64,000 nucleotides of DNA, from the NCBI GenBank assembly GCA_964506945.1, contig CAZDOC010000007.1, positions 1,284-65,283 of the forward strand, given 5' to 3'. The translations under genes and the position numbers were made by a program. Positions 29,644 through 45,933 of the stretch are shown in pieces (positions within the stretch are counted from its first letter, which is position 1; each line of letters starts with the position of its first letter). The notes beneath the pieces were generated by a model. The model saw nothing but the letters and a program-made list of their open reading frames with translations. It was not told the DNA's origin and searched no databases. This stretch comes from an uncultured Gammaproteobacteria bacterium (GTDB taxonomy: Bacteria; Pseudomonadota; Gammaproteobacteria; CAZDOC01).

Positions 29644-30732
29644 ATGAACGCTCTCACACAACCGAAAGTGGGTGTCATATTCAAATCATATGAGCCCATG
29701 GCATCGATGCGGAAGTACGCCATGCAGACGGAGGCCTCCGGTATGACGGGAGGGTTCTGGATAGCCGAGGCCTATCACTGGTTCCGTCAATACGGCCTGG
29801 AATCGCGCGGCTGCTTCGCCACCCTGGCCGCGGTCGCCCTGGCAACCCGGGATATTCCCGTGGGGCTGGGCATCACCTCCCCCTACATCAGGCACCCGAC
29901 GGCGCTGGCTTCCGAGGCCGCGGCCATCGACGAACTCTCCAATGGGCGGTTCATCATGGGGATCGGCGTAGGCAAGGTCGGTATCGAGTACCTTGAATAC
30001 GATATCGATGTACTCAGGCCGGTTCCGGTCCATCATGAATCCATGCAGATCATGCGCAAGGTATTCAGCGGCGAGCCTTTTGATTACAAAGGCAAGATTT
30101 TTGAATCCAGCATGCCTGGGTATGACCGTGCCGCGGCGGGTCTGCGCACCGATATCCCCATCTATGTCGGTGCGACGGGGCCGTTCATGCAACGTCTTTC
30201 AGGCCGGGAAAGTGATGGCATGCTTCTGGCCGGCCTGACCTCGCCTGCATTCGTGAAGTATGCCCGGGACAATATGCGGGCCGGTGCTGAAAAGGCCGGT
30301 CGCACCCTGCCGGAAGATTTCCCCGTGGGCGGCGTCATACTCTGCGCCTGTTCCAGGGATGGCGACAAGGCCCGGGACGCGACCCGTTCCTATACGGGAA
30401 CCTATATCGTCAACAAGATACGCAATATCAAAAACGATGTCATTCTTGCAGGATCCGGACTTCCCGACGAGGCCTGGGAACCCTTCCGCAAAGCCATCGC
30501 CGAGGGCACACAGGACCATGTGACGCACCTGGTCACCGATGAGATGATGCGCAGGTTCACGGTGATCTCGGGTACACCGGAGGATTGCCTGGAGATCACC
30601 CAGGAACTGGTGGATGCCGGGCTCAACCTGCCGTTGCTGGAGGTTGTCGGTGAAACGGAACAGGACAACCTGGAGACCATACGACTGATGGGTCAGGAAG
30701 TCGTACCCAATCTTGTCCCGGGCGTGAGATAG
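29644..30732 (+). CDS. Luciferase-like (LLM) oxidoreductase, Mer-like, probably F420-dependent
   Basis: FWIAEAY, GLGITSPYIRHP, DELSNGRFIMGIGVG, PIYVGATGP. Start at 29644 with GAGGG RBS. F420 use is inferred from context. Confidence 0.82.
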   Translation: MNALTQPKVGVIFKSYEPMASMRKYAMQTEASGMTGGFWIAEAYHWFRQYGLESRGCFATLAAVALATRDIPVGLGITSPYIRHPTALASEAAAIDELSNGRFIMGIGVGKVGIEYLEYDIDVLRPVPVHHESMQIMRKVFSGEPFDYKGKIFESSMPGYDRAAAGLRTDIPIYVGATGPFMQRLSGRESDGMLLAGLTSPAFVKYARDNMRAGAEKAGRTLPEDFPVGGVILCACSRDGDKARDATRSYTGTYIVNKIRNIKNDVILAGSGLPDEAWEPFRKAIAEGTQDHVTHLVTDEMMRRFTVISGTPEDCLEITQELVDAGLNLPLLEVVGETEQDNLETIRLMGQEVVPNLVPGVR

Positions 30733-30742
30733 AGGTGGGATC

Positions 30743-31699
30743 ATGAAGCTGTCCACATTCAGAAAATGCCCGGACAAGGAGGTCACCATGGGAGGGGTGA
30801 TCAGGGATGTCTATATCGATCTGCATGTAATGTCTGGTGGCGAATTGCCGGCGGACATGATCGGATTCCTGCGCGCCGGTGAGGAGGCCATGGATCAGGC
30901 CCGCGCGCTGTTGCGGGAGGCTGAAGCCAATCTTCACGGCTCGCGGCCGGCGGATCTGTGTCGTGATGATGGTGCGCGCTATGCCTATGATGAAGACGAG
31001 GTGGAACAGCTGTCCCCGGTGCCTCAGCCCGGGAAGATAGTCCACACTTCCTGTAATTTTGATTCCCATCTTGCCGAACTGAGTACCTGGAACGATCCGG
31101 AATGGGCATCGCACAACTGGCAGGATTTCCATTTTGAGCATCCCACGGGCTTTCTGGAGGCGCCTTCTTCCGTGGTTCCAAACGGCGCCAGGGTCGAGAT
31201 CCCGGTCTTTACCCGGCAACTCGATTACGAGATAGAGATAGCCATCGTCATTGCCAGGGAGGCCTACAGGGTCTCCGTGGCCGACGCCCCTGACTATGTG
31301 GCGGGCTACATGATATTCAACGATCTCTCCGCACGTGATATCCAGGCCCGGGAACATTCCAACAAGGTCATCCTGATGGGCAAGAGTTTCAGGGGGTCAT
31401 GCCCGTTGGGACCCTTCCTGGTGACTACGGATGAATTGTCCGATCCGCACAATCTGGAGATGAAACTGCGCGTCAACGGTGAATTGCGTCAGGACGCGAA
31501 TACCTCGCAAATGCATTACAAGACCGCGGAGCTGGTTTCCTGGTGGTCACATATGGGCCTGTATCCCGGAGATGTGATCACCAGTGGCAGTCCTCCCGGG
31601 GTCATCGCGGGCATGAAGGAGCCGGTATGGCTGAAGCCCGGGGATGTGATCGATGCCAGTATTCAGGAACTGGGTACCCTGACCACCTATATCGGCTGA
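30743..31699 (+). CDS. Fumarylacetoacetate hydrolase family protein
   Basis: LDYEIEIAIVI, GYMIFNDLSARDIQ, GKSF, LGPFLVT, PGDVITSGSPPGV. Confidence 0.92.
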   Translation: MKLSTFRKCPDKEVTMGGVIRDVYIDLHVMSGGELPADMIGFLRAGEEAMDQARALLREAEANLHGSRPADLCRDDGARYAYDEDEVEQLSPVPQPGKIVHTSCNFDSHLAELSTWNDPEWASHNWQDFHFEHPTGFLEAPSSVVPNGARVEIPVFTRQLDYEIEIAIVIAREAYRVSVADAPDYVAGYMIFNDLSARDIQAREHSNKVILMGKSFRGSCPLGPFLVTTDELSDPHNLEMKLRVNGELRQDANTSQMHYKTAELVSWWSHMGLYPGDVITSGSPPGVIAGMKEPVWLKPGDVIDASIQELGTLTTYIG

Positions 31700-31750: not shown

Positions 31751-33022
31751 ATGTCCACGAGCTTGAACGACGATCTGATCAACGAGGCCATTCGACACAT
31801 CGATCGGGAGCGCCTGATCAACCTGGTCATGAGACTGGTGGACATACCCAGTCCAACCGGACAGGAAGCGGAAATGGCGCGAGCGGTTCATGAGGAACTC
31901 GAGTCCGCCGGTTTTGACGCAACGCTGCAGCCCATTGGTGATGATCGCTACAATGCCGTTGGCCGTCTGCAGGGGCGGGGAGGTGGCAAGTCCGTGATGT
32001 TCAACGGGCACCTGGATACCTCGTTCGGGCCAGAACAGGCCCATCGCGGCATAGGCTACCAATGCAAGGCCACCCTGATCGATGATGCATGGATCTATGG
32101 TATGGGTTCCTTCAATATGAAGAGCGCCATGGGAACCTATATCGTCGCCTCCGAGGCCATCAGCAAGGCGGGTATCACCCTGGCCGGGGATATCGTGATC
32201 GCGGGCGTTGCCGGTGAGATTGAAAAGGCGCCGGTGAATGAATTCGAGGGTCGCCAGTATCAGGGCTACGGTGTCGGCACGAAATATGCGATAACCCATG
32301 GCGCCATAGCCGATTACTGTATCCTGGGTGAGCCAACCAACATGATGCTCATCCCCAGGCATTGTGGCACGACCTGGATCAAGATAACCATCCCCGGTCG
32401 CCTGATCCATACCGCGTGGTCGGATGTGGAAAGCAATGCCATCAATAAATCGAGGAAGGTCCTGGACGCCATTCATGAATGGATCCCGGATTACTGCCGG
32501 CGCAATGCCCTGGGAGATTTTCAACCCCGGGTAAACGTCTCTGCGATACAGGGTGGCTGGACCTGGCGTGGTGCCAGGACACCGGACAATTGCTGCATCT
32601 ACATGGATGTGCGTACCTTGCCGGACACGTTGCCGGTCGAGGCCTATGCCGAGGTACGCACACTGCTTGACGATCTGGTCAGGGCAAACCCCGAGCTGGA
32701 AGGCAGCAAGGCGGAGGTCTATGTCAGCGCACCAGGCACTTCGATACCCGATGACCACGAGCTGGTACGGACCATCATCGATGCGCATACCGCCCAGCTC
32801 GGGCAGGCGCCAGAGATGGGGACGGAAACCTGGTACAGCGATGCGGCGCATATGAATCGTTATGGGATCCCGACCGTCAATTACGGATCCGCGGGCAGGA
32901 TCCAGAGCGGTGGCGGCGGCTTCTCGGTCAATCAGGGCGAGGCCGTCCACATAGGTGATATGCTGGACATCATCAAGGTGTATATTCAGGTTCTGATCAC
33001 GCTTTGCGGTACCGTGGACTAG
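31751..33022 (+). CDS. M20/ArgE-DapE family amidohydrolase with atypical metal ligands
   Basis: FNGHLDT, IYGMGSFNMKS, AGEIE, LGEPT, SDAAHM. Confidence 0.8.
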   Translation: MSTSLNDDLINEAIRHIDRERLINLVMRLVDIPSPTGQEAEMARAVHEELESAGFDATLQPIGDDRYNAVGRLQGRGGGKSVMFNGHLDTSFGPEQAHRGIGYQCKATLIDDAWIYGMGSFNMKSAMGTYIVASEAISKAGITLAGDIVIAGVAGEIEKAPVNEFEGRQYQGYGVGTKYAITHGAIADYCILGEPTNMMLIPRHCGTTWIKITIPGRLIHTAWSDVESNAINKSRKVLDAIHEWIPDYCRRNALGDFQPRVNVSAIQGGWTWRGARTPDNCCIYMDVRTLPDTLPVEAYAEVRTLLDDLVRANPELEGSKAEVYVSAPGTSIPDDHELVRTIIDAHTAQLGQAPEMGTETWYSDAAHMNRYGIPTVNYGSAGRIQSGGGGFSVNQGEAVHIGDMLDIIKVYIQVLITLCGTVD

Positions 33023-33034
33023 ATTCAGGCAGCC

Positions 33035-35389
33035 ATGCACGACGTATACGAGGATATCCTCAGCAAGGCCGTATCGGATGGGCCGGTTTCCCATACGGAT
33101 GCCTTGCGCCTTGGCGAATGCCAGGACTTGCCGGCATTGATGCGGACTGCATCCCGCATCCGTGACCAGGGTCATGGCCCGATCGTGGGTTATTCCCCCA
33201 AGGTCTTCATTCCACTGACGAAGTTGTGTCGTGATGTCTGCCACTACTGTACCTTTGCCGAAGTGCCCGGAAGGGCGGGTCCCGCGTATCTGGATGCCGA
33301 TGAAGTCATGGCCATAGCCAGATCGGGTCTCGAGGCCGGATGTCACGAGGCCTTGTTCACCCTCGGCGACAAGCCGGAGTTGCGCTATGCGGCCGCGCGA
33401 CGCGAGTTGCGGGCACTGGGACACCGGACCACGCTTTCGTATCTGGCCGACATGGCCAGACTGGTGCTGAACGAGACCGGTCTGTTGCCCCATATCAATG
33501 CCGGGGTCATGGGCCGGGGGGATCTGCTCGCATTGAGAGCCGTTTCCCTGTCCCAGGGCCTGATGCTGGAAAACATCTCCTCGAGGCTATGCCTCAGGGG
33601 CGGCCCACATTTTGGATCCCCGGACAAGATCCCGGCGGCGCGTCTCAGTACCATCGCGGCTGCCGGTGGTGCTCGCGTGCCGTTCACCTCAGGGATCCTG
33701 ATAGGTATCGGGGAGACACGCAGAGAGCGTATCGAATCACTGCTGGCATTGCGGGATCTGAATGATACCGATGGCCATATCCAGGAGATCATCATCCAGA
33801 ATTTTCGCCGCAAGGCGGCGACTCTGATGCGGGATGCCCCGGAACCGGATATCGATGACATGCTCTGGACGGTTTGCATGGCGCGAATCATCTTCGGCGC
33901 GCGGATGAATATTCAGGTTCCACCCAACCTCATGCCTGAGGCCCTGCCGGCCCTCATCGATGCCGGTATCAATGACTGGGGCGGTATTTCACCGGTGACC
34001 CCGGATCATGTCAATCCCGAGGCGGCATGGCCACATCTGTCGCGACTGCGATCCGTCACTGAAGCCGCCGGAAAACAACTGACAGCCAGACTGCCGCTCT
34101 ATCCCTCCTATATCGAGCGTATGCACGAATGGGTGGACAGTGACCTTCATCGGCAGGTATTGCTGAGGATCGACGCCCTGGGTCATGCGCGTACCGATGA
34201 CTGGCATCCCGGAGATGGGCTGGCCGTCCCCCGGCTCAGACGACCCGGCGCGGTTACTGGCTCCGGCAGCAGACTCACTGGCGTGATCAGCAAGGCCATG
34301 GCGGGACAGAGGTTGAGCGAGGATGAGATCGTGGGGCTGTTCGCAAGCAGGGGGGGCGATCTCGAGGCGGTCTGCCGCGCCGCCGACGAGCTACGCATCG
34401 CTGTCAATGGCCAGGTCGTCAGTTATGTCGTCAATCGCAATATCAACTACACCAATATCTGTTATTTCGGTTGCCGGTTCTGCGCCTTCTCCAAGGGCCG
34501 GGTCAGCGAGAATCTGCGCGAACGCGGTTACAGGCTGGACCTGAAGGAGATCCAGAAACGTGTACTTGAGGCCTGGTCCGCCGGGGCAACGGAGGTCTGC
34601 CTGCAGGGGGGCATACACCCGGACTATACCGGTGAGACCTATCTCGCCATCGTCGATGCGATCAAGAAGGTACAGCCCAATATCCATGTGCATGCGTTCT
34701 CCCCCCTGGAGATCAGTCACGGCGCCGATACCCTGGGTCTGCCACTGAAGGCATATCTGCTGGAACTGCAGCAGGCGGGTCTGGCGAGTCTTCCCGGAAC
34801 GGCCGCGGAGATCCTGGACGACGAGGTTCGCGCCATCATATGCCCTGACAAACTGAATACCGGCGAATGGCTGAAGGTCATTAAAACGGCGCATGATATC
34901 GGCATGCCCACCACGGCGACGATCATGTTCGGGCATGTCGACACACCACGTCACTGGGCAAGGCATTTGTTGCTGATCCGTGATTTGCAGGCCGGGACCG
35001 GTGGCTTCACGGAGTTCGTGCCACTACCCTATATCCACATGCAGGCCCCGCTGAGTAAAAAGGGTCGTTCCAGGCCTGGCCCCACATACCGTGAGACGCT
35101 GTTGATGCATGCTGTCGCGCGTCTTGTCCTGCATACGGAAATCGGCAATATACAGGCGTCATGGGTGAAGCTGGGGCAGGAAGGGATCAAGGACTGCCTG
35201 GACGCCGGGGTAAACGATCTGGGTGGCACACTGATGAATGAGAGTATCAGTCGTGCGGCCGGTGCGGGTTTCGGGCAGGAATTCAGTGAAGCCGATCTCA
35301 GGTGTTTCATTCAGTCCTGTGGCAGGATGCCACAACAGCGGACGACACTTTATGGTGATGTGGCCGCCATAAGCAGTCGCAGTGCCTGA
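33035..35389 (+). CDS. fbiC: Bifunctional FO (7,8-didemethyl-8-hydroxy-5-deazariboflavin) synthase, CofG-CofH fusion
   Basis: CofG domain YSPKVFIPLTKLCRDVCHYC..QVPPNL..GINDWGGISP; CofH domain NRNINYTNICYFGCRFCAFSKG..EVCLQGG..TEFVPLP..GVNDLGGTLMNESISRAAG. Confidence 0.95.
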   Translation: MHDVYEDILSKAVSDGPVSHTDALRLGECQDLPALMRTASRIRDQGHGPIVGYSPKVFIPLTKLCRDVCHYCTFAEVPGRAGPAYLDADEVMAIARSGLEAGCHEALFTLGDKPELRYAAARRELRALGHRTTLSYLADMARLVLNETGLLPHINAGVMGRGDLLALRAVSLSQGLMLENISSRLCLRGGPHFGSPDKIPAARLSTIAAAGGARVPFTSGILIGIGETRRERIESLLALRDLNDTDGHIQEIIIQNFRRKAATLMRDAPEPDIDDMLWTVCMARIIFGARMNIQVPPNLMPEALPALIDAGINDWGGISPVTPDHVNPEAAWPHLSRLRSVTEAAGKQLTARLPLYPSYIERMHEWVDSDLHRQVLLRIDALGHARTDDWHPGDGLAVPRLRRPGAVTGSGSRLTGVISKAMAGQRLSEDEIVGLFASRGGDLEAVCRAADELRIAVNGQVVSYVVNRNINYTNICYFGCRFCAFSKGRVSENLRERGYRLDLKEIQKRVLEAWSAGATEVCLQGGIHPDYTGETYLAIVDAIKKVQPNIHVHAFSPLEISHGADTLGLPLKAYLLELQQAGLASLPGTAAEILDDEVRAIICPDKLNTGEWLKVIKTAHDIGMPTTATIMFGHVDTPRHWARHLLLIRDLQAGTGGFTEFVPLPYIHMQAPLSKKGRSRPGPTYRETLLMHAVARLVLHTEIGNIQASWVKLGQEGIKDCLDAGVNDLGGTLMNESISRAAGAGFGQEFSEADLRCFIQSCGRMPQQRTTLYGDVAAISSRSA

Positions 35390-35446
35390 GTTTGCCGGCG
35401 TGATGAGCGTGGCGATCTCTGGTCGGGCATACAGGAGGTGTTATTG

Positions 35447-36262
35447 ATGACAGCACATGAATTGCATGAGTCCCTGTCGGCCGCAAAGGTTTATGACCTC
35501 GGTCAGCCCTACTGGAATACCATGCCGGTGCATCCCTTCGATCCACCGTTCCAGTCTTATCTCTATCGTTACCATGAATACGTGCGCAAGTCCTTCGATG
35601 AACTGGGCATAGAGCCCGGCTTCTCCGACGCCATCAGTATCATGATCACCTCGAATCATTCAGGCACACATTTCGATCTGCCGATTCACATGTCACAGGA
35701 CAACAAGGTCCAGGGGATCGATGTTACTCCCTATCAGCGGGATACCGGCTTCAAGGACCTGCCGCAACCCCTGCACAGTCTCGAAGCCGTCCCCCCTCTC
35801 ATCCTGCGTACCGTATTGCTGGATATTCCGGCCTACAAGGGGGTAGATATACTGGCCGAACGCTATCCGATTACCGCGCAAGACCTCGAAGGGGCATTGG
35901 CGCGGGAAGAACTGTCCATCAATGAGGGCGATTGCATCCTGATCCGTACCGGCTATGGACGGTATTTCGAGACGGACAGGCAGACCTATCTGAATCGATG
36001 GGCCGGACTGACGGATGCGGCGGCCCATTGGCTCGCCGATCGGAACCCCCGCCTCGTAGGCATGGATAACCTGTCCCTGGGTGTTCCTGAGCCATTTTCA
36101 TGCCATCGCATCCTGCTGGTCGAACAGGGAATATACCTGATGAAGAGCCTGGCACTGGAGGAGATATGCCATGACGAACAATATCTGTCCACGGTGATCG
36201 TGTTGCCGCTGAAGATAAAAGGGGGGGAGGCTTCGCTGGTGCGGCCCATGGCGTTGGCATGA
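35447..36262 (+). CDS. Cyclase family hydrolase (kynurenine formamidase/isatin hydrolase-like)
   Basis: HSGTHFDLPIH, LIRTGY, LVGMDN, PLKIKGGEASLVRP. ATG at 35447 follows an AGGAGG RBS. Confidence 0.88.
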   Translation: MTAHELHESLSAAKVYDLGQPYWNTMPVHPFDPPFQSYLYRYHEYVRKSFDELGIEPGFSDAISIMITSNHSGTHFDLPIHMSQDNKVQGIDVTPYQRDTGFKDLPQPLHSLEAVPPLILRTVLLDIPAYKGVDILAERYPITAQDLEGALAREELSINEGDCILIRTGYGRYFETDRQTYLNRWAGLTDAAAHWLADRNPRLVGMDNLSLGVPEPFSCHRILLVEQGIYLMKSLALEEICHDEQYLSTVIVLPLKIKGGEASLVRPMALA

Positions 36263-36356: not shown

Positions 36357-37553
36357 ATGAGATATAACATACCTAGAGAGAAAGTCTGGACCAGTTCCAT
36401 CAATGAAAGGCCTGATATCCAGGCCTGCTTCGATCATGAAAAGCCCATTCGTTTCTACGATACCACGCTCAGGGATGGTGAGCAGTCAGTCGGGGTGTGC
36501 TTCAGTCCGGAACAAAAGTTCGAGATTGCCTGCATGCTTTCCGAGTTGGGTGTCGGCCGTATTGAATCGGGCTTTCCACAGGTATCTGAGGCAGATAACG
36601 AGGCGGTGAAGCGCATTCTTGCGGCAGGACTCGATGCGGAGATATGGGGTTTTTCCCGTTGTGTGCAGTCTGACATCGATGCCCATGTCGAGCTGGGCAC
36701 CGAGAACATATTGATGGAGATCTCGACCAGCGAGATCAAGATGAAGGCTTACGGATTCGATCGGCCCAAGGTCATGGAGCGCGTCTGCGCCTCGATTGAG
36801 CATGCCCGCTCCAACGGCATCGGCAAGATCAATTTCTTCGCGGTAGACGCCACCCGCTCGGATCCGGGGTTCCTGAAGGAGATATATACTGCCGCGATCT
36901 CGGCCGGTGCGGATGAGATCTCCGTGGTCGATACCATCGGCGCCTGTGCCCCCGAGGCAGTGGAGTGGCTGATCAGGGAGGTGAAATCCTGGATTGGAGA
37001 TACCCCGCTGCATTGGCATGGGCACAACGATTTTGGTCTCGCGACGGCCTCGGCGATTGCCGCGGTACGGGCTGGCGCGGACTGGATCCAGGGGACCATC
37101 AACGGCATGGGTGAACGTGCCGGCAATGCCGATATCGCCGAGGTGGCGCTGGCACTGCAGTGTCTCTACCACGTGCCCGCGGAGCTGGACCTGGGCCGGG
37201 CGCGAGCCGTCTCAAAATATGTCCAGCAAGCCGGCGCCTATACTGTCGATGGCTGGAAACCGGTGGTCGGTGAATATCTCTATACCCGCGAGAGCGGCGC
37301 GGTCGCCACGCAGTTCCACCTTCCCGAGGCGATAGAGCCCTATGCCGCGGATATCGTTGCTGCTCCACGCAGGATCGTGCTGGGCAAGAAAAGTGGCCTG
37401 GCGAGCCTGGACCTGAAGGCCAGGGAACTGGGTATCGATATCCCGAAGGCACAGCGCGATGCGGTTCTCGCCGAGGTCAAGGCCCTCTCAGTGGAGAAAT
37501 CAGGTCTGGTCTCGGATGATGAATTCATCACCATCGTCAGCCATCATGGATGA
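36357..37553 (+). CDS. Homocitrate/isopropylmalate synthase-like DRE-TIM enzyme without a LeuA regulatory domain
   Basis: DTTLRDGEQ, HWHGHNDFGLA, INGMGERAGNA; 398 aa. Confidence 0.88.
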   Translation: MRYNIPREKVWTSSINERPDIQACFDHEKPIRFYDTTLRDGEQSVGVCFSPEQKFEIACMLSELGVGRIESGFPQVSEADNEAVKRILAAGLDAEIWGFSRCVQSDIDAHVELGTENILMEISTSEIKMKAYGFDRPKVMERVCASIEHARSNGIGKINFFAVDATRSDPGFLKEIYTAAISAGADEISVVDTIGACAPEAVEWLIREVKSWIGDTPLHWHGHNDFGLATASAIAAVRAGADWIQGTINGMGERAGNADIAEVALALQCLYHVPAELDLGRARAVSKYVQQAGAYTVDGWKPVVGEYLYTRESGAVATQFHLPEAIEPYAADIVAAPRRIVLGKKSGLASLDLKARELGIDIPKAQRDAVLAEVKALSVEKSGLVSDDEFITIVSHHG

Positions 37554-37568
37554 CTCCGGTTATGGACC

Positions 37569-38522
37569 ATGAAGCAGATTGAAAGTGTGTGTATCGTCGG
37601 CGCCGGCACCATCGGCAGTCTTTTCGCCGGGCATCTTGGAACGGTCGTTGATACGAAGGTGCTGACGCGGAGGGAGGCGCATGCCCGGACCCTGAATGAA
37701 TGCGGTCTGCGGATCAGCGGCAAATCCGATCTGCTGGCGATGGTGACGGCATCGACGAAGGCCACCGATTTGGGAGATCCCGATCTGGTGATCATCGCCA
37801 CCAAGGCGCTGGCGGTGGAAACCAGTGCCAGGAACATACAGGGCCACTTTCCTGATGCGCATGTATTGATGGTGCAGAATGGCCTGGGCTGCGAGGAGAT
37901 CGTGAAGCAATATGGTGACTGGCCCATTATCTCGGGGGTCACCTTCATGAGCGGTACGCGGCATTCGGACGCGCATGTGGAGTATGAACTCGATACCGCC
38001 ACATGGATAGGTCCCTGGGCGCAGAGCAATGCCAGTTTCGAGTCGGTCAAGCAGGTGGCGGCGTTGCTGGAACACGCCGGCCTGAAGGCCGAGGCCTATG
38101 CCGATCTGTTGCCGCATCAATGGTCCAAGCTCATCTTCAATTCCGCCATCAACAGCATTGCGGCCATAACCGATCTGCCACATGTAAAGGCCTTCGCCAG
38201 GCAAGCCGCGATCGATGATCTGGGTCATCTGGTTCATGCCATGATGGATGAGGCCAAGGCTATTGCCGCGGCACGAGGCGTCACGCTTGCGGATGATCCC
38301 TGGGAGATGAATGTGAAGGCCGTGGGGCAGGGCATGACCGGTGGCGATGCCTACGCCCATGTGCCATCGATGCTCGATGATATACAAAACCGGCGCCTGA
38401 CGGAGATCGACTGGATCACCGGGGCGATCGTGCGCGAGGCCATCAAGGCGGGGATCCCGGCGCCCTATCATGAGACGCTTTACCGGCTGGTGAAGGCGCG
38501 GGAGTCGAGCTGGAGGGCCTGA
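37569..38522 (+). CDS. Ketopantoate reductase (PanE/ApbA) family oxidoreductase 1
   Basis: GAGTIGS, IATKA, QNGLG, WSKLIFNSAIN, SMLDDI, TEIDWITG. Confidence 0.88.
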   Translation: MKQIESVCIVGAGTIGSLFAGHLGTVVDTKVLTRREAHARTLNECGLRISGKSDLLAMVTASTKATDLGDPDLVIIATKALAVETSARNIQGHFPDAHVLMVQNGLGCEEIVKQYGDWPIISGVTFMSGTRHSDAHVEYELDTATWIGPWAQSNASFESVKQVAALLEHAGLKAEAYADLLPHQWSKLIFNSAINSIAAITDLPHVKAFARQAAIDDLGHLVHAMMDEAKAIAAARGVTLADDPWEMNVKAVGQGMTGGDAYAHVPSMLDDIQNRRLTEIDWITGAIVREAIKAGIPAPYHETLYRLVKARESSWRA

Positions 38523-38631
38523 AAGTATTGTGATCATCCCGGACCTTCCTGTGATACAGGGAGGTGTCGCCAGAATCGACCACATGAGTGACCGATCTTG
38601 CGAGACCACCGGGAACCGCGTTTTCGGTGCG

Positions 38632-38691
38632 CATCCCTGGTTGAACAGGGATGGATTGTTCAGGGTTTGCTGTACTGTGTTTGCTGTACTG
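38632..38691. repeat. Inverted repeat plus tandem 13-bp direct repeat upstream of the second PanE-like gene
   Basis: CATCCCTG-gttgaa-CAGGGATG (38632-38653); GTTTGCTGTACTG at 38665-38677 and 38679-38691. Confidence 0.7.
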
Positions 38692-38778
38692 GGTTTCCAA
38701 AAGATTTTCCATGATCAGGCCATGTCCGGTTATGCGGGTGGGGGTCATGGACTCACGACAACAGAGGACTTTTAGCCA

Positions 38779-39726
38779 ATGAGGATCTGCATTATCGGCT
38801 GTGGCGCGATCGGCAGTCTGTACGCCGCGCACCTTGGCACCCTGGATGACGTGGAGGTCTGGGCCTACGATCTCAACAAGGACCACGTCGATGCCATCAA
38901 CGAAAATGGCCTGCGTCTGACGGGACTCAGCGATATCGTCGCCCCGGTCCAGGCACGTTGTGATGCCGCCGACATACCTCCCTGTGATTTCGGCATCATC
39001 GCCACCAAGAGCATGTTCACGCGCCCGGCAATGGAGGCGAGCGCGCGGATCTTCACTGATGGTGCCGTGTGCTCCGTCCAGAATGGAATAGGCAATGAAG
39101 AGGTCGTGGCCGAATATGTCCCCCGGGTCATACAGGGCACGATCTTCCCGGCCGGCCATATCACCGCCCCGGGTGTCGTCAACCAGGATGCCGCCGGTAA
39201 CACCTGGATCGGGCCGTTCGCCCCCAAGCCGGCCAGCATGCAGGAGGTCGAGCAACTGGCGGATGCCATACTCCGCAGCGGCATGGATTGCCAGGCCATG
39301 GAAGACGCTCGTGGCGCCCAGTGGACCAAACTGATATTCAATGCCGCTTCCAATGCCATGGGGGCCCTGACCCGCCTGCCTCATGGTGTCGCCTGTGATC
39401 AACCCGCTGTACGCAAGCTCATGTCCGGGCTGGTAAGGGAAGGCGTGGCCGTGGCGGATGCCCTGGGGATCACCCTGGACTCCGATCCCGAGGCCTTGCT
39501 GGACTATGGCAGGGAGAAGGCCTACTACCATCCCCCCAGCATGCTGCAGGATGTCCTGGCGCATAGAAATACCGAGGTCGATGCACTCAATGGCGGCATC
39601 GTCCGCCTGGGCAAGGAACTCGGCATACCCTGTCCACTGAACGAGGCCTGTACCGCCATCATCAAGGGTCTGGAATATTCCTGGGTCATGGAAATACCGG
39701 AAGACACCCAGACGGCCCATCGCTGA
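38779..39726 (+). CDS. Ketopantoate reductase (PanE/ApbA) family oxidoreductase 2
   Basis: GCGAIGS, IATKS, QNGIG, WTKLIFNAASN, PSMLQDV, TEVDALNG. Confidence 0.88.
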   Translation: MRICIIGCGAIGSLYAAHLGTLDDVEVWAYDLNKDHVDAINENGLRLTGLSDIVAPVQARCDAADIPPCDFGIIATKSMFTRPAMEASARIFTDGAVCSVQNGIGNEEVVAEYVPRVIQGTIFPAGHITAPGVVNQDAAGNTWIGPFAPKPASMQEVEQLADAILRSGMDCQAMEDARGAQWTKLIFNAASNAMGALTRLPHGVACDQPAVRKLMSGLVREGVAVADALGITLDSDPEALLDYGREKAYYHPPSMLQDVLAHRNTEVDALNGGIVRLGKELGIPCPLNEACTAIIKGLEYSWVMEIPEDTQTAHR

Positions 39727-39839: not shown

Positions 39840-40994
39840 ATGAGTGAATATATCAACCGTTTCCGGCCCAGCCAGGCTGAAATCGATCGCCGCTATGCCA
39901 ATACCCGCATGGCAATGGAACAGGCCGGACTCGATGCCTTGATCATCAGTGGCAGTGAATACAGTGGCTTCGAGGGTGCGGTCCGCTACATGTGCGGCTT
40001 TCTTGTCCTGCATCGTTATGCCTATGTCGTCATCCCGCTGGAAGGCGAGCCGGTGTGTGTGTTTCCGCGCGAGGCAACCTGGGTCGGCGATCACAGCGCC
40101 ACGTTTATCGAACGCAGGGAGTTTCCCGCCCATTGTGGTGAATGGATGGCTGGCTTCCTGAAAGAGAGGAAGATCAAACGGCTGGGGATCTACGGGCTGG
40201 AATACATCATCAATGTGCGTGACTATCGGGCCCTCGCGGCATGCGATTTCGAACTGATCGATTTTGAACGGCAATTCGATTATTCACGGGCGCAAAAAAG
40301 CGAGGAAGAACTCCGCTCGGTGCGGCATTCCATGGAGATCAACAAGGAAGGGGTCCTCGCGGTCATACGCTCATACCAGGCCGGCAGGACCGAGGCCGAG
40401 CTGATGGGGCTGGCGGAAGATGTCTTCGCACGCAGGGGATGTGCCAGGAACACCATGGACATGGTGCAGATGGGTCCGAACGGCTCCCTGGAGCCACAGA
40501 TGGTGTTTCCCAGTCAGAGACCCCTGCGTGACACGGATGGCATGATGTACGGGCTGGAAATTGCGGGAGAAGGGGGCCACTGGGTAGAATTCTCCCGGCC
40601 GCTGATGCCGGGAGGTATGGACCCCGTTACCCGGGAGATGATGTCCGCCTACCAGGAATTCCACGAACTGGCCAGGGAATACATGAAGGCGGGCAACCGT
40701 GTGGAAGACGTCGTCAATGCGTGCATGAAGCCGATCTACGACAGGGGTTACCGCTCGGGACATGTCTGCGGCCATTCCATCGGCATGACCATGATCGAGA
40801 TGCCCCGTATCGGTGAGGGTTTCGACTTCGTGCTGCCGGAGAATATGGTCTGTTCCATGCACCCGCATTTCATGAACCAGGAACGCACCCATTCCCTGTA
40901 TTTCCAGGAGACCTATCGTGTGGGCAAGGACGCCGGGGAACCCCTGTCAGGGGTGCCCATCAAGGCCTACGAAGGTGGAGAGACCCAGCTTTGA
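39840..40994 (+). CDS. M24 (creatinase/Xaa-Pro aminopeptidase fold) hydrolase
   Basis: N-terminal EIDRRY..AGLDALII domain, KSEEEL, GHVCGHSIG, LPENMVCSMHP, QETY. The 3' end overlaps the convergent MFS gene by 35 bp. Confidence 0.82.
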   Translation: MSEYINRFRPSQAEIDRRYANTRMAMEQAGLDALIISGSEYSGFEGAVRYMCGFLVLHRYAYVVIPLEGEPVCVFPREATWVGDHSATFIERREFPAHCGEWMAGFLKERKIKRLGIYGLEYIINVRDYRALAACDFELIDFERQFDYSRAQKSEEELRSVRHSMEINKEGVLAVIRSYQAGRTEAELMGLAEDVFARRGCARNTMDMVQMGPNGSLEPQMVFPSQRPLRDTDGMMYGLEIAGEGGHWVEFSRPLMPGGMDPVTREMMSAYQEFHELAREYMKAGNRVEDVVNACMKPIYDRGYRSGHVCGHSIGMTMIEMPRIGEGFDFVLPENMVCSMHPHFMNQERTHSLYFQETYRVGKDAGEPLSGVPIKAYEGGETQL

Positions 40995-42261
40995 GATGTT
41001 GTCGGCCGTTCACCTGTCGTAGTAATGGATAAGGGCCAAGCAGGGTGATCAGCATGGTGCCGATGACCGCGATGGCGGTCAATATCCAGAGCGCGCCGAT
41101 ATAGTTTCCCATATGGTCATAATAGATGCCGAGTATCGGCGGGCCGAAGGCCGAGCCGATCTGGAAGGCGGCGAACATGGTCCCATAGATCTGGCAAAAT
41201 GAACGAAGGCCAAAATAGCGGCTGCACAGGTAGGCAATTTCACTGATTTCCGATCCCGTGGCCAGGCCGACGAAGATCGCGGCGACGACGACCAGCTTGC
41301 CGGATGTGCCAAGCGCCAGGATGACGATGCCGGTGATCAGGAACAGCAGGAAGAATGCCGTGACATACGGGGCAAAGAAGTGATCCATCAGCAGCCCGCC
41401 CAGGATGCGCCCGGTGACCAGTCCCACACCCAGCAAGGACATGCACAGGGCGGCCTTGTCCGGGCTGATGCCACGGTCTGTCAGCATCGGCACCAGGTGC
41501 GCAAGGATACTGGTAATGGCGATGCCGACCAGCAGGAATGAGGTGAAGATCAGCCAGAAGCTTTTCGTCCTGAGGGCCTCCCGGGCAAGCAGGCCGGACG
41601 CGGATGAGGGCGCCGGCGATGCGATATTCGCCGGCATGTCTTCCAGGCCATCCGCCTGCAGGCCCATATCCCGGGGTCTTTCCCTGAACAGGAACAGGGT
41701 CATGGGCAGGGAGACACACAGGACCGTCAGGGCGAAACCGACATAGGCGGAGCGCCAGCCATAATGCTCGATCATGAACTGGGCAAAGGCCGGCACGAGG
41801 GTGGCGCCCACGCCAAAGCCGGACAGTGCGATACCCAGCGCCAGACCACGCCTGCGGTTGAACCAGTTGATGATCACCCGGGAGTAACTCTGTGGCAGGG
41901 TTCCGGCACCCAGGATCGGGATCAGCAGGAACATGGCATAGAATTGCCAGATATTGCCCGTCAGCAGGGCCATTGATGCCACCGTCAGGGCCATCATGAC
42001 GATCGAGGGGATGATGACGCGTCGCACCCCCAGCCTGTCGATCAGCAGCCCGATGCCTGGCGAGACAATGACCACCGCGATATTGGTCATGGTCAGCGCG
42101 AATGACATCTCACCGCGCTGCCAGCCAAATTCACTTTCCAGCGGTCTGACGAAGGTTCCAAAGGCGAAGACGGTGAACATGGCATAGCTGAGTGCCATGC
42201 CCACGAATGAAGTGAGTACGTTCCACCAGCCGAAAAATATGGGTCGTCCTGAATGTGGCAT
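40960..42261 (-). CDS. MFS transporter
   Basis: About 12 TM segments; GLLIDRLGVRR, WFNRRRGLALG, GRILGGLLMD. Confidence 0.9.
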   Translation of the reverse strand: MPHSGRPIFFGWWNVLTSFVGMALSYAMFTVFAFGTFVRPLESEFGWQRGEMSFALTMTNIAVVIVSPGIGLLIDRLGVRRVIIPSIVMMALTVASMALLTGNIWQFYAMFLLIPILGAGTLPQSYSRVIINWFNRRRGLALGIALSGFGVGATLVPAFAQFMIEHYGWRSAYVGFALTVLCVSLPMTLFLFRERPRDMGLQADGLEDMPANIASPAPSSASGLLAREALRTKSFWLIFTSFLLVGIAITSILAHLVPMLTDRGISPDKAALCMSLLGVGLVTGRILGGLLMDHFFAPYVTAFFLLFLITGIVILALGTSGKLVVVAAIFVGLATGSEISEIAYLCSRYFGLRSFCQIYGTMFAAFQIGSAFGPPILGIYYDHMGNYIGALWILTAIAVIGTMLITLLGPYPLLRQVNGRQHLKAGSLHLRRP

Positions 42262-42463
42262 GATGCCCCGTTTTTGTTATGCACCCACAGTCAACTGATC
42301 CGACATCCAAGGTCAAGCAGAAGCGGCCTGCCCATACTAGGATATGGATAAGGATTCTACTACGCCATCCTGACCCGGGACCAGATCCGGACGGAGTCCG
42401 GCAGCCTTGCGAGCGCCTGCTGGAACAGGTGACGACGAACAGTTTGCGACACGGAACATGACC

Positions 42464-43129
42464 ATGTCTGATGAGATACCGACAATCGCGATCCTGGGGG
42501 GCACCGGGAACCTGGGTCTTGCCCTGGCATGGCGTTGGGCCAGAGCCGGCTATCCCGTTTCCATTGGCTCACGTTCAGAGGAAAAGGCCAGGGACGCGGC
42601 AGACAGGCTCAATGAAAGAACCGGCCGGGACAATGTGAACGGCTGCAGTCATGCCGACGCCGTCCGCGATGCCGACATCGTCGTTCTGACCGTCCCCTAT
42701 GCGGCTCACGAGTCCACCCTGAAGACCATCAAGGCACATCTCTCGGGTCAGGTGCTGATCGACACCACCGTTCCCCTCAGGCCGCCCAGGGTGAGCGTCG
42801 TGCAATTGCCGGCAGAGGGCACGGTCGCGGTCCACACCCAGGAATACCTGGGGTCGGGCGCCCGCGTCGTTGCCGCATTTCACAATGTCGCCGCCAGTCT
42901 CCTCGACAAGGAGGGTGACATCGACTCTGATGTGCTGGTGACATCGGACGATGATGAGGCGAAGGCAGGGGTGATAGCGCTGGCGAAGGCCGCGGGATGC
43001 CATGCCCTGGATGCCGGGGCACTGGCCAATGCCATCGTTATGGAATCGCTCACCAGCCTGTTGATCCACTTGAACAGGACATACAAGAGCGGACATGCCG
43101 GGATCCGGATAACCGGCCTGAATGAGTGA
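42464..43129 (+). CDS. npdG: NADPH-dependent F420 reductase (F420H2:NADP+ oxidoreductase)
   Basis: IAILGGTGNLG, IGSRSEEKA, LTVPY, IDTTVPL, VVAAFHNVAA, ESLTSLLIHLNRTYK..AGIRITG. Start at 42464 (track gives 42407). Confidence 0.92.
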   Translation: MSDEIPTIAILGGTGNLGLALAWRWARAGYPVSIGSRSEEKARDAADRLNERTGRDNVNGCSHADAVRDADIVVLTVPYAAHESTLKTIKAHLSGQVLIDTTVPLRPPRVSVVQLPAEGTVAVHTQEYLGSGARVVAAFHNVAASLLDKEGDIDSDVLVTSDDDEAKAGVIALAKAAGCHALDAGALANAIVMESLTSLLIHLNRTYKSGHAGIRITGLNE

Positions 43130-43138
43130 GGGATGATG

Positions 43139-43319
43139 TTGTCGAGAATTCTGGAGCAAGCCCTGGATGGTCCATCGAGTCAATCGCGCTGTTGATCCGG
43201 CCTTCTCCTTCCGATTGATGCGGAATGGCTTGAAGTGTATGCCCCGGCATGTGGCCTGACCTCCTCCTGTGCGGACATGCACGCCCTCCATCCAGGGCTT
43301 GCTCCAGGATTCTGACAAT
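43139..43319. repeat. About 180-bp intergenic element bounded by ~31-bp imperfect inverted repeats (MITE-like or large stem-loop)
   Basis: TTGTCgAGAATtCTGGAGCAAGCCCTGGATGG (43139-43170) pairs with CCATCCAGGGCTTGCTCCAGgATTCTGACAA (43288-43318); the 20-bp core is perfect. Confidence 0.75.
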
Positions 43320-43373
43320 TGAACCCCGTCGGGATCGGCTATCCCCGGATCACATTTCCCCGGGCATCGGTTG

Positions 43374-44144
43374 TCAGGGCCGGAACAGGTCCTGGGATTT
43401 GTCCCGTAACAGGCACCGTGCTCCCTGTCCTGATGGTGAGACGGGATAACCCCGGATCAGAACGACGGGTGTTGCCTCGTCGGCCTCCCCCATCATCAGG
43501 CAGGCCGCAGCGGCGAGAGCGTCGGCATCCGCGGTCTCGCTGACCAGTAACCGGCGGTCATACATGTCATGCCGGCCCCGCAGGTCGCGCAGGGTCTGAA
43601 AGCCGGCCGCGCCGATGGCGACACCGACACTGCCCAGGCGCCAGGGACGGCCGATACTGTCGGTAACGAGGATCCCGACCTGTTTGCCGGTGATGCGCAG
43701 CAGCGATTCCCGCAGGGCCCTGGCCGAGGCATCCGGGTCCCTGGGTAGCAGCAGGACCCGTTCACCGCCATCATCGGCATTACCGATATTGGAATGATCG
43801 ATGCCTGCATTCGCCAGTATGACACCGCTGTTGTGTTCGACGATGATGAGTCCGGGTCTGAGGGCGATGATCTCCCGTGACTCCGCCAGCACCAGTTCAA
43901 TCAGCCTGGGATCCTTGTCGACCTTATGGGCCAGTTCCCGCGCCTGCCGTGAAGGGGTGACCGATGCCAGTTCGACAAAACGGTCCTCGGCCTTGGATAC
44001 GATCTTCTGTGCCAGGCAGAGAATATCGCCATCATGCAAGGCATTGCCTGATGCGGTCAGCGCCTGCGCCATGATCCGCGCCAGATCCACACCGGCCTCG
44101 ATGACGGGTATGCCCGGGATGGTGATGACTTGTAGTGTATCCAA
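43374..44144 (-). CDS. cofE: Coenzyme F420-0:L-glutamate ligase (standalone, no nitroreductase domain)
   Basis: AQKIVSKAEDR, ANAGIDHSN, LLPRDPDASA, VTDSIGRPWRLG, ADALAAAA, GEADEATPVVLIRG. Likely TTG start at 44144 (track gives 44348). Confidence 0.93.
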   Translation of the reverse strand: MDTLQVITIPGIPVIEAGVDLARIMAQALTASGNALHDGDILCLAQKIVSKAEDRFVELASVTPSRQARELAHKVDKDPRLIELVLAESREIIALRPGLIIVEHNSGVILANAGIDHSNIGNADDGGERVLLLPRDPDASARALRESLLRITGKQVGILVTDSIGRPWRLGSVGVAIGAAGFQTLRDLRGRHDMYDRRLLVSETADADALAAAACLMMGEADEATPVVLIRGYPVSPSGQGARCLLRDKSQDLFRP

Positions 44145-44315
44145 AGGCTGTGTCTCGTGCGCACCATGTTGCGGGAGCTGGATCGACCAACAGGTCTCGT
44201 GCAAGACCCCCGACAGGAGGATCCTTTTCGGTCCATTGTCAGGGGCATCCCGGGGCCGAGATCCCGGCCCCGGCCATTCTAGCGGAGAACCCTGATTGAT
44301 GACACACTGTCCAGC

Positions 44316-45296
44316 ATGATCACTCTGGGAAAGATCCAGCCAAAACACCTGGTCCTGTCCGGCGGTGTCGGCGGTGCCAAACTGGTCCTGGGCCTGTCAC
44401 ATGCGCTGCCACCCGAGAGCCTGCATGTCGTGGTCAATAGCGCCGATGATTTCGTCCACCAGGGCCTTTATGTCTGCCCGGATATCGATACCCTGATCTA
44501 TACGCTCGCGGGCCTGAACAACAGGGAACTGGGCTGGGGGCGCGCGGACGAAACCTGGAACTATATGCAGGCCTGTGAAGAACTGGGCCTGGAACACTGG
44601 TTCAGGCTCGGTGACAAGGACCTTGCCCTGCATGTCCACCGTACCCGGCAGCTGGCACAGGGTGCCGCGCTCTCCGGGGTCGTGGATGATCTGTGCACAC
44701 GTTTCGGTATCACCGTGAAGCTGATGCCCATGAGTGACGACCCCGTGCGGACCTTCGTGGAGAGCGGGGCGGGCAGGCTTGCCTTCCAGGAATATTTCGT
44801 CAAGCATGCTTGTGAACCGGTGGTGCATGATATCGTCTTCGATGGTGCTGAGACGGCCAGACCCTGTGCCGGGATCCCCGCCATACTGGAAGACCCCGGG
44901 CTTCAGGCGGTCATAATCGCGCCCTCCAATCCGTTCCTCAGCATCCGGCCGATCCTCTCCTGTGGTGGTCTCCAGAAGACCTTGTCCCGCACACGGGCAC
45001 CCTGTGTCGTCGTCTCACCCATCGTACAGGGGCAGGCGCTGAAAGGCCCCACCGCAAAACTGATGCGGGAACTGGGTCTGGATTGTGATGTGCCGGCGAT
45101 AGCCGGTCTGTATGCCGATATCGCCGACGGCATCGTCATCGATGCCCGGGATGCAGGCCATGTCGCGGCTATCGAGGCACGGGGGCTGCGCGTCATGACC
45201 ACGGACATCATCATGCAATCCCTGCGGGACCGCATCAGGCTGGCGCGGGAGGTCGTCGGGTTCGCCCGCACCCTGTGGGCGGGAGAGGACGACTGA
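44316..45296 (+). CDS. cofD: 2-phospho-L-lactate transferase (CofD/FbiA)
   Basis: LSGGVGGAKL, NSADDF, PDIDTLIYTL, WFRLGDKD, FQEYFVK, PSNPFLSI, VSPIVQGQALKGP. Confidence 0.95.
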   Translation: MITLGKIQPKHLVLSGGVGGAKLVLGLSHALPPESLHVVVNSADDFVHQGLYVCPDIDTLIYTLAGLNNRELGWGRADETWNYMQACEELGLEHWFRLGDKDLALHVHRTRQLAQGAALSGVVDDLCTRFGITVKLMPMSDDPVRTFVESGAGRLAFQEYFVKHACEPVVHDIVFDGAETARPCAGIPAILEDPGLQAVIIAPSNPFLSIRPILSCGGLQKTLSRTRAPCVVVSPIVQGQALKGPTAKLMRELGLDCDVPAIAGLYADIADGIVIDARDAGHVAAIEARGLRVMTTDIIMQSLRDRIRLAREVVGFARTLWAGEDD

Positions 45297-45297
45297 G

Positions 45298-45933
45298 ATG
45301 TGGGTCATCGTACCGGTCAAGAGACTTCGCAACTGCAAACGCCGGCTGTCCACCGTCCTCGATACCGGGCAGCGCGCACGGTTCAGCCGCCTGCTCCTGC
45401 TCGATGTCCTGTCGGCCCTGGCGGCCCCTGCGGGTGTCCAGGGCATCACCCTGGTCAGCAGTGATCCCGGACTGGCCGGCGTGGCGCGGAACTGTCAGGC
45501 GGATCTCCTGTTGCTGGAGAAGGATTCCGGTTATTCAGAGGATGTCCTGCTGGCCATAGGGCGCCTGGGCCGGGACGAGAGGGAACGGATCGCCATCATT
45601 CCGTCCGATGTCCCGCGGATATCACCTGCCGAGGTAGCGGGTCTCTGCCGCTCACCGCGCGGCGGTATCACGCTCTGCCCGGCCCACCGGGACGCAGGAA
45701 CCAATGCCCTGGTCTTTACCTCCCCGCTCACGATACCGCTGTTGTTTGGCAAGGACAGTTTCTACCGGCACCGGCAGGCGGCCATCCGTGACGGCCTCGA
45801 GGTCCAGGTCATGGACCTGCCGGGACTGGCGCGTGATATCGATCGCCCGGAGGACCTTCTCTGGCTGGCCTCGCAGGCAGGCGGGGGACTGGCATGGTCC
45901 TATCTCAGGGAGGAACTCCGTATCGCCTGTTGA
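45298..45933 (+). CDS. cofC: 2-phospho-L-lactate/PEP guanylyltransferase (CofC/FbiD)
   Basis: VIVPVK..CKRRLS, PSDVP, GTNAL, FGKDSF..H, DIDRPEDL. Confidence 0.92.
   Translation: MWVIVPVKRLRNCKRRLSTVLDTGQRARFSRLLLLDVLSALAAPAGVQGITLVSSDPGLAGVARNCQADLLLLEKDSGYSEDVLLAIGRLGRDERERIAIIPSDVPRISPAEVAGLCRSPRGGITLCPAHRDAGTNALVFTSPLTIPLLFGKDSFYRHRQAAIRDGLEVQVMDLPGLARDIDRPEDLLWLASQAGGGLAWSYLREELRIAC

Follow-up and report, generated by a model that had tools for sequence, protein, structure and literature searches.

A LeuA-like protein without the Claisen triad and two PanE-family enzymes lie in a conserved, putatively catabolic gene block joined to F420 genes in an uncultured gammaproteobacterium

Introduction

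A gene for an enzyme of the LeuA/NifV type that is followed by two PanE-family genes raises the question which metabolic task the three products might share. Such a trio lies at positions 36357-39726 of a 64,000-nucleotide stretch of contig CAZDOC010000007.1 (contig C7; this whole stretch is called the window here), which belongs to the 2.66-Mb, 97% complete genome of an uncultured gammaproteobacterium (GenBank assembly GCA_964506945.1). The original prediction, made from the DNA sequence alone, was that the synthase condenses acetyl-coenzyme A (CoA) with a pathway 2-oxoacid, possibly an arylglyoxylate from a PadBCD-like enzyme, and that the PanE-type enzymes act on such an acid as well. Here, we find that the LeuA-like protein is without the catalytic triad of the Claisen-type synthases, and we consider it about as likely as not that it is a CoA-independent lyase which serves a catabolic pathway alongside a pair of 2-hydroxy/2-oxoacid dehydrogenases. 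The three genes and the spacer between the last two are:

36357-37553, + strand: LeuA/homocitrate-synthase-fold DRE-TIM protein of 398 amino acids (aa) without a regulatory domain (PF00682 HMGL-like, 1e-68)
37569-38522, + strand: PanE-a, PanE/ApbA-family 2-oxoacid/2-hydroxyacid oxidoreductase, 317 aa (ApbA and ApbA_C)
38523-38778: spacer between PanE-a and PanE-b, 256 bp
38779-39726, + strand: PanE-b, second PanE-family oxidoreductase, 315 aa (ApbA and ApbA_C)

Results

Active site of the LeuA-like protein

The coordinates, domain calls and shared PanE motifs given in the original prediction agreed with the open reading frames, the Pfam matches and a pairwise comparison, and the assignments to the LeuA/NifV type and to the PanE family (ApbA/ApbA_C, TIGR00745) were right. 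Besides PF00682, the LeuA-like protein gave a weak match to HCS_D2, and a LeuA_dimer domain was not found in the Pfam scan. Its NCBIfam scores were all below the cut-off (329/517, 326/485 and, for nifV, 281/463). The best structural matches of its AlphaFold2 model (pLDDT 96) were homocitrate synthase (HCS; 6ktq) and methylthioalkylmalate synthase (MAMS; 6e1j), with a TM-score of 0.85, and a search of the ESM Atlas returned only generic AksA/LeuA-like clusters.

The active site of BjMAMS was transferred to the LeuA-like protein through the 6e1j alignment and, in a second and better anchored mapping, through a profile-profile alignment of 77 members of the LeuA-like family with 44 canonical relatives:

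Arg89: Arg39, kept
Asp90: Asp40, kept
Gln93: Gln43, kept
Thr257: Thr193, kept
His288 and His290: His221 and His223, kept
Glu227: Val163, lost
His388 (general base): gap in the 6e1j alignment, Ala315 after a one-residue deletion in the profile-profile alignment, lost
Tyr399: Pro323 in the 6e1j alignment, Ile326 in the profile-profile alignment (TYEP to AIEP), lost

Residues R39, D40, D192, T193, H221 and H223 are invariant or nearly so in the family, which has 65-82% identity across families and classes, and Q43 is conserved. The replacing residues are conserved too, V163 and I326 at >=97% and A315 at >=80% among the 77 members. The motif around the lost His, RESGAVATQFH, is conserved across these 77 sequences; the genome's own LeuA has HESGIH there, together with the Glu. 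Two further residues are new and invariant in the LeuA-like family, namely Glu121 in place of the synthases' Phe and Lys128 in place of the His in their TSxIH. In the family as a whole, the metal and 2-oxoacid site is retained and the Claisen triad is missing. Exchange of the corresponding residues in MAMS (E227A, H388A or Y399S) left no detectable activity (PMC11532901). Because Glu, His and Tyr are replaced by Val163, Ala315 or a gap, and Ile326, plain condensation of acetyl-CoA with a 2-oxoacid appears unlikely for the LeuA-like protein, and on this point we depart from the original prediction.

Loss of the triad extends beyond the close relatives. Among the 118 nearest full-length representatives of 50%-identity clusters, 59 lack both the Glu and the His of the GIH motif, 45 are canonical and 14 lack the Glu only. 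The LeuA-like protein of the window thus belongs to a large and diverse triad-less group that is apparently uncharacterised. His321, which is invariant in the close subfamily, is not conserved in this wider group.

The PanE pair

Both PanE proteins pass the TIGR00745 subfamily cut-off of 141 bits (PanE-a 216, PanE-b 223), and their ApbA and ApbA_C domain scores, at 98-117 bits per domain, are above the cut-off as well. The 2-dehydropantoate reductase equivalog models all stay below theirs (for example 181/500 and 163/252). PanE-a and PanE-b are 39% identical (E 1e-63), with the common motifs VQNG, W.KLIFN, PSML.D and TE.D. In related loci they form two old orthologous clades of 39 (PanE-a) and 33 sequences (PanE-b), both of which are present in at least 29 loci and keep the catalytic motifs QNG, K.IFN, PSML.D and TE.D. 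Both window proteins have the family's catalytic residues, with Asn in QNG, Lys and Asn in K..FN, Ser and Asp in SM.D and Glu in TE.D, and both look catalytically competent.

The two enzymes differ where the second Rossmann strand ends, with Arg34-Arg35 invariant in PanE-a and Asp31, aligned with R35, invariant in PanE-b. The Rossmann rule for these residues predicts NADP(H) as the cofactor of PanE-a and NAD(H) as that of PanE-b. The signature position is presumably that of Arg31 in E. coli ketopantoate reductase (KPR), which we assume to bind the 2'-phosphate of NADPH. The closest solved relative of PanE-b is the Thermococcus KPR 5hws (141 bits). Judged from these features, NAD(P)-linked interconversion of 2-oxoacids and 2-hydroxyacids is the most likely chemistry of the pair. 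Contrasting cofactors would fit either two different steps, one oxidative and one reductive, or a stereo-inversion via the 2-oxoacid.

A conserved five-gene block

The three genes belong to a five-gene block (amide hydrolase, LeuA-like, PanE-a, PanE-b and M24 hydrolase), which we found in more than 75 mostly gammaproteobacterial genomes. As the same genes occur in the same order in dozens of genomes, the three-gene arrangement is not due to chance. Proteins homologous to the LeuA-like protein (65-82% identity) make up more than 120 clusters at 90% identity, and they were recovered from 362 places in species-representative genomes. Almost all carriers are uncultured Gammaproteobacteria (Halieaceae/Halioglobus, Woeseiaceae, Candidatus Thiodiazotropha, Arenicellales and Wenzhouxiangellaceae), with a few Alphaproteobacteria, and the block is widespread in Gammaproteobacteria of marine sediments and in symbionts, but rare across the class (2 of 399 sampled genomes). 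Searches of the literature on F420 with gammaproteobacterial catabolism, on PanE with isopropylmalate synthase (IPMS) and F420, and on DRE-TIM subgroups gave no description of the block.

An amide hydrolase gene precedes the LeuA-like gene on its strand, at a distance of no more than 600 bp, in 63 of the 81 loci with enough upstream sequence; it encodes a PuuE-like CE4 protein in 59 loci and a cyclase-family protein in four, the window included. The CE4 protein of about 291 aa (e.g. L001:9022-9900) is unrelated to the PF04199 cyclase. Since a CE4 gene was not found anywhere in the genome of the window, and the unrelated cyclase stands at its position, this is a non-orthologous displacement at a fixed place upstream of the LeuA-like gene. 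In 27 of 67 loci, the LeuA-like gene is followed on its own strand by PanE-a, PanE-b and M24; the Halieaceae copies of these three are transcribed divergently and adjoin the AraC gene. The architecture of the window is type I, the cyclase taking the CE4 position. The junction between PanE-a and PanE-b, 256 bp here, measures 65 bp in locus L005. Short direct repeats (tgctgtactg) occur in the 256-bp spacer, and a scan for promoters and terminators in the three-gene stretch and this spacer gave nothing exceeding the shuffled expectation.

Where the block lies apart from F420 genes (L025, L027, L033, L034, L039, L042, L043, L047, L050 and L066), a divergent glutamine-synthetase-like gene is found about 1-3 kb upstream of CE4. 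Its product resembles gamma-glutamylputrescine synthetase (241 bits, below the cut-off), which hints at a gamma-glutamylation step, and a short-chain dehydrogenase/reductase (SDR) gene stands alongside in some loci.

Housekeeping counterparts of the three genes lie elsewhere in the genome. A canonical 531-aa LeuA with regulatory region, 33% identical to the LeuA-like protein, adjoins ilvC on another contig. Matches to the aconitase family are on contigs C20 and C4, Iso_dh matches on C23, C6 and C2, and panB on C17, and none is on C7; as the original prediction had noted, no aconitase, decarboxylating dehydrogenase, nif or pan gene (panB and panC included) is annotated nearby, that is, at 20.7-64 kb of the window. 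PanE-a and PanE-b are the genome's only clear PanE-family members. In 16 of the 20 nearest class-level genomes a PanE-family gene was not found, and the single relative among the 20 that has a LeuA-like gene carries two PanE genes directly beside it. Given the conserved synteny, the separate leuA-ilvC and the missing PanE-family genes in these 16 relatives, the three genes are not leucine, nif or pantothenate genes, and the earlier view that they form one functional unit for 2-oxo and 2-hydroxy acids is borne out.

Partner genes change around a constant LeuA-like gene

More distant members of the triad-less group were compared by their neighbouring genes:

P0125, 42% identity: two aldehyde:ferredoxin oxidoreductases, M24, D-2-hydroxyacid dehydrogenase (2-Hacid_dh), isochorismatase-family hydrolase, HMGL
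P0126, 41% identity: creatininase-family hydrolase, HMGL
P0127 (locus L099), 40% identity: M29 peptidase, HMGL, homolog of LarA-type 2-hydroxyacid racemase, IlvD/Edd dehydratase
P0134 (locus L103), 38% identity: TRAP transporter, 4-oxalocrotonate (4-OT) tautomerase, four-subunit molybdenum (Mo) hydroxylase with split large subunit, creatininase, aminotransferase, HMGL, succinyl-CoA-synthetase-like subunits
P0138, 36% identity: HMGL, 3-hydroxyacyl dehydrogenase (3HCDH), SDR, nearby cyclase-family hydrolase

The amide hydrolase has been swapped several times among triad-less loci (CE4, cyclase, isochorismatase, creatininase), and likewise the 2-hydroxy/2-oxoacid enzyme (PanE pair, 2-Hacid_dh, aminotransferase, LarA), while the LeuA-like gene is constant. 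This repeated replacement of partners is our strongest argument that amide hydrolysis, 2-oxoacid formation and the LeuA-like reaction are sequential steps. The LarA homolog in L099 would be a one-enzyme equivalent of the stereo-inversion considered for the PanE pair. In L103, the large subunit of the Mo hydroxylase beside the triad-less homolog is split into two genes (L103:2269-5899; 425 and 338 aa). A split large subunit is also a feature of the nicotinate dehydrogenase of Eubacterium barkeri.

Orthologs of the LeuA-like gene also stand in other contexts, one with a thiamine pyrophosphate (TPP) enzyme, an aromatic-ring hydroxylase, a bicupin, a pyrroloquinoline quinone (PQQ) dehydrogenase and an asparaginase, and another with an FAH gene and a second HMGL-like gene. 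FbiC, the FO synthase of the F420 pathway, was not found in four of five genomes that carry such orthologs, and the LeuA-like reaction is therefore self-contained, that is, used by the F420 pathway and not defined by it.

The operon in the window and its F420 genes

In the window, the block is fused into one operon with further genes, and fno-cofE-cofD-cofC adjoin. The tight run of + strand genes spans 28.4-41.0 kb, and its features other than the three genes listed above are:

28423-29403, + strand: AraC/FeaR-like regulator at the operon head, kept in 22 loci
29560-30732, + strand: F420-dependent luciferase-like oxidoreductase (LLM), closest to the methylene-tetrahydromethanopterin reductase Mer (Pfam/NCBIfam)
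30743-31699, + strand: FAH-family enzyme
31751-33022, + strand: M20 ArgE/DapE-type deacylase
33035-35389, + strand: bifunctional FO synthase FbiC, exceeding its own equivalog cut-off
35438-36262, + strand: cyclase-family metal hydrolase directly upstream of the LeuA-like gene (PF04199, 3e-25)
39840-40994, + strand: M24 creatinase/prolidase-fold hydrolase, the last enzyme of the block (Creatinase_N and Peptidase_M24)
40960-42261, - strand: major facilitator superfamily (MFS) transporter of the lactate or oxalate:formate type, often kept with the block and present in 15 loci
42407-45933, mixed strands: F420 genes fno (+), cofE (-), cofD (+) and cofC (+) (Pfam F420_oxidored, F420_ligase, CofD and CofC)

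The original prediction had missed that the real context is this F420 operon (LLM, FAH, M20 and FbiC), with the flanking amide hydrolase and M24. LLM-FAH-M20-FbiC are either fused upstream of the block, as in the window, or lie 19-77 kb away in the same genome; M24, where it is absent from the operon, is likewise found 19-77 kb away in the same genome. A FAH gene beside the LeuA-like gene recurs in F420 operons and in alphaproteobacterial loci. In NCBIfam the transporter comes closest to the L-lactate MFS transporter model, with 170 bits where 320 would be needed to pass. The M24 hydrolase is 70-84% identical to its counterparts in related loci. Its unusual ligand set is Glu, Glu, His and His, compared with Asp209, Asp220, His284 and Glu313 in the Pyrococcus prolidase, so that it is not a dinuclear prolidase of the standard kind, nor is it clearly a creatinase. 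The closest solved structures of PanE-a, PanE-b, M24, LLM, FAH and the cyclase are all distant and did not indicate a substrate.

Directly upstream of the AraC gene lies a gene for a 540-aa protein (26793-28415), in which residues 343-537 form a MocA-type molybdenum-cofactor cytidylyltransferase domain and the first ~340 residues are without a Pfam match; this is probably an XdhC-like fusion. To the right of the block, the window holds two Mo hydroxylases, the PadBCD-like enzyme, an electron transfer flavoprotein (ETF) and its quinone oxidoreductase (ETF-QO). The island extends past the right end of the window on C7 (L097: 600-1880(-), 1846-3072(-), 3182-4087(+), 4101-4796(-), 6550-7548(+)), with a succinate-glutarate-type family III CoA-transferase, an acyl-CoA dehydrogenase, a LysR regulator, a free-standing CoxG protein, a DUF3179 protein and a second Mer-like F420-type LLM. 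NCBIfam models for the island's Mo hydroxylases, CoA-transferase and acyl-CoA dehydrogenase all scored below the cut-off (the best being XdhA and succinate-glutarate CoA-transferase) and give no substrate.

For an arylglyoxylate made by the PadBCD-like enzyme as the 2-oxoacid in question, the evidence points neither way. PadBCD-like genes recur near the block in several genomes, but LeuA-like orthologs occur also in unrelated contexts and in genomes in which FbiC was not found. A three-gene PadBCD-like set follows the block in L020, L036, L037, L065 and L080, downstream of the LeuA-like/LLM genes, and the PadB-like proteins of these loci are only 26-31% identical to that of the window. Two conserved proteins without Pfam matches (~367 and 162 aa) often precede this set and are absent from the window.

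Discussion

We propose that the block encodes part of a catabolic route in which the LeuA-like protein makes or breaks a C-C bond without acetyl-CoA. The hydrolases may open or deacylate a nitrogen-containing carboxylate in the first step. In the second step, the two PanE enzymes would interconvert a 2-hydroxy acid and a 2-oxo acid, one with NADP(H) and the other with NAD(H). The alpha-oxo or alpha-hydroxy acid could then be bound at the retained metal site of the LeuA-like protein, which would act by a retro-aldol or an alkylmalate-type lyase reaction, or, less likely, as a beta-decarboxylase. We infer the direction and type of this reaction, and the catabolic role of the block, from the lost residues and the neighbouring genes. 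Signs of catabolism are the AraC/FeaR-like regulator and the transporter within the block and, in the island, the Mo hydroxylases, ETF, ETF-QO, the CoA-transferase and the acyl-CoA dehydrogenase.

The gene content points to a small nitrogen-containing carboxylate as substrate, because the block has three to four hydrolases of the amide/amidine/ureide type, a monocarboxylate-type transporter and the AraC/FeaR-like regulator, and because Mo hydroxylases, a low-potential hydride enzyme and a lower module of the glutarate/acyl-CoA type are in the neighbourhood. A route of hydroxylation, F420H2-dependent reduction and hydrolytic opening is plausible. Pantothenate, isatin/indole, picolinate/nicotinate, urate/allantoin and creatinine-like substrates each fit some of the genes and none fits all, and the evidence does not tell pyridine-carboxylate, purine/ureide and creatinine/ectoine-like candidates apart. 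The enzymes of the known homarine pathway (homABCDER) are unrelated to those of the window.

With HCS, IPMS and MAMS (6ktq, 6e1j and 3rmj), the LeuA-like protein has the same TIM barrel and accessory subdomain (TM 0.85, 30-34% identity), and the Arg-Asp and His-x-His metal/2-oxoacid site as well as the Thr and Gln contacts are common to all. It differs from them in that the triad is replaced, Glu121 and Lys128 are new, and a regulatory domain and an isomerase/dehydrogenase partner are missing. Similarly, the window PanEs have both domains and the Asn/Lys/Asn/Ser/Asp/Glu motifs in common with E. coli PanE (1ks9), the Thermococcus enzyme (5hws) and the PanE-family D-mandelate dehydrogenase (3wfi). 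They differ from these solved members in that they score only 47-141 bits against them, are not linked to panB/panC and occur as an ancient tandem pair of differing cofactor signatures, which accompanies a hydrolase-lyase block across genomes.

Hydratases and decarboxylases of the FAH fold pair with DRE-TIM aldolases in meta-cleavage pathways, and by this working analogy, which does not imply membership in those families, we suggest that the LeuA-like protein is paired with the FAH-family enzyme. As in those systems (MhpD/XylJ/XylI with MhpE/DmpG; 1nvm, 4jn6), a FAH and an HMGL-like enzyme are encoded in one operon, and both DRE-TIM enzymes would act on a metal-bound 2-oxoacid, which for the LeuA-like protein is a prediction. 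The barrel of the LeuA-like protein, however, is of the LeuA and not of the DmpG type (75 bits, where the DmpG family model requires 286) and is without a DmpG_comm domain, and no aldehyde dehydrogenase gene is present in the operon of the window, whereas the partner of DmpG is an acylating aldehyde dehydrogenase.

Several points weigh against a CoA-independent lyase in a catabolic pathway. The catalytic His of DmpG-type aldolases is not present in the LeuA-like protein, which has Gln43 in its place, and His321 might serve as a substitute base. The 14 of 118 otherwise canonical-looking relatives that are without the Glu still keep the His, and loss of the Glu alone is therefore not diagnostic. 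The triad-less group is without a characterised member, so that the reaction type is deduced from the lost residues and the neighbours. The cofactor assignment of the PanE pair relies on the Rossmann-fold rule and on the KPR residue that we have assumed. PanE enzymes are normally reductive, which sits less easily with a catabolic scheme, and in a genome without another PanE homolog one of the two copies might also supply pantoate.

Other explanations of the locus have to be weighed against these points. An acyl-CoA-dependent Claisen synthase with another base (His321, Glu121 or Lys128) could make a substituted malate from a pathway 2-oxoacid, with the PanEs trimming 2-oxoacid side products. 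No variation is seen at the three candidate bases within the family, the protein has the fold and the complete accessory subdomain of HCS and MAMS, and the succinyl-CoA-synthetase-like pair after the gene in L103 places CoA chemistry nearby. Arg39 and Gln43 are kept too, and their equivalents help to position acetyl-CoA in MAMS (PMC11532901). However, all three residues that mutagenesis identified as essential in MAMS are replaced by aliphatic ones (PMC11532901), His321 does not extend to the wider triad-less group, an isomerase or dehydrogenase partner was not found on the contig, and spending acetyl-CoA in a catabolic operon would have no obvious logic. We therefore regard such a synthase as unlikely.

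Still less probable is a biosynthetic block that makes part of a cofactor, for example the precursor of the F420 side chain, or a small natural product. This explanation draws on the position of FbiC within the operon, with fno-cofE-cofD-cofC after it, and on PanE-type reductases, which could yield lactate or another 2-hydroxy acid. An enzyme for the side-chain precursor is supposed to be missing from Gram-negative F420 producers. The literature leaves the proteobacterial route open (PMC8498797). The distribution of the two sets of genes, however, speaks against this explanation. In an even class sample of 399 other Gammaproteobacteria, the LeuA-like gene was found in two genomes, both FbiC-positive, and FbiC in 15, of which 13 gave no LeuA-like match; together with the four of five genomes described above, this indicates that neither depends on the other, and a role in making the side-chain precursor was rejected on these co-occurrence figures. 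Nor would three to four hydrolases, an AraC/FeaR-type regulator, an uptake-type transporter and an island with Mo hydroxylase, ETF and CoA-transferase genes be expected of a biosynthetic block.

The least probable explanation of all is that these are ordinary housekeeping genes, one PanE serving as ketopantoate reductase and the LeuA-like gene being a non-catalytic paralog that is decaying or regulatory: the genome has panB and no other PanE-family gene, and loss of the triad also fits a pseudo-enzyme, but 65-82% identity across families and classes, an intact metal site and new invariant residues indicate strong purifying selection, both PanE clades travel with the LeuA-like gene and are missing from most relatives, the 2-dehydropantoate reductase equivalog models stay below their cut-offs, and ilvC is present and can supply the activity. 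The ketopantoate reductase activity of ilvC is established for enterobacteria.

A wider version of the lyase proposal is more speculative, and we consider it possible, though doubtful. The triad-less LeuA-like proteins would be a new functional class of DRE-TIM enzymes, CoA-independent C-C lyases derived from alkylmalate synthases. An F420-dependent pathway for an N-heterocyclic or ureido/guanidino carboxylate, which needs no oxygen and begins with the neighbouring molybdenum hydroxylases, would have these lyases as its lower part, together with the NAD/NADP PanE pair and cyclic-amide hydrolases that can replace one another.

Taken together, our results bear on the annotation of the family and on the use of F420. 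Annotation pipelines call the LeuA-like protein isopropylmalate synthase, homocitrate synthase or even homoaconitate hydratase, and the residue evidence contradicts these names for the LeuA-like family and for about half of the nearest sequence clusters. The physiological role of the F420 gene clusters of Gram-negative bacteria is unknown, and why Proteobacteria make F420 is a stated open question (PMC8498797). The gene set of these clusters (fno, cofC, cofD, cofE and fbiC) also adjoins the operon of the window, with the difference that fbiC lies here inside an operon that is putatively catabolic and also encodes a Mer-like LLM, which suggests a candidate physiological use for the cofactor. 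With the FO synthase gene in the same operon, the block offers a concrete handle on why Proteobacteria make F420, and the wider pathway, if it is true, would give F420 its first assigned physiological task in Gammaproteobacteria.

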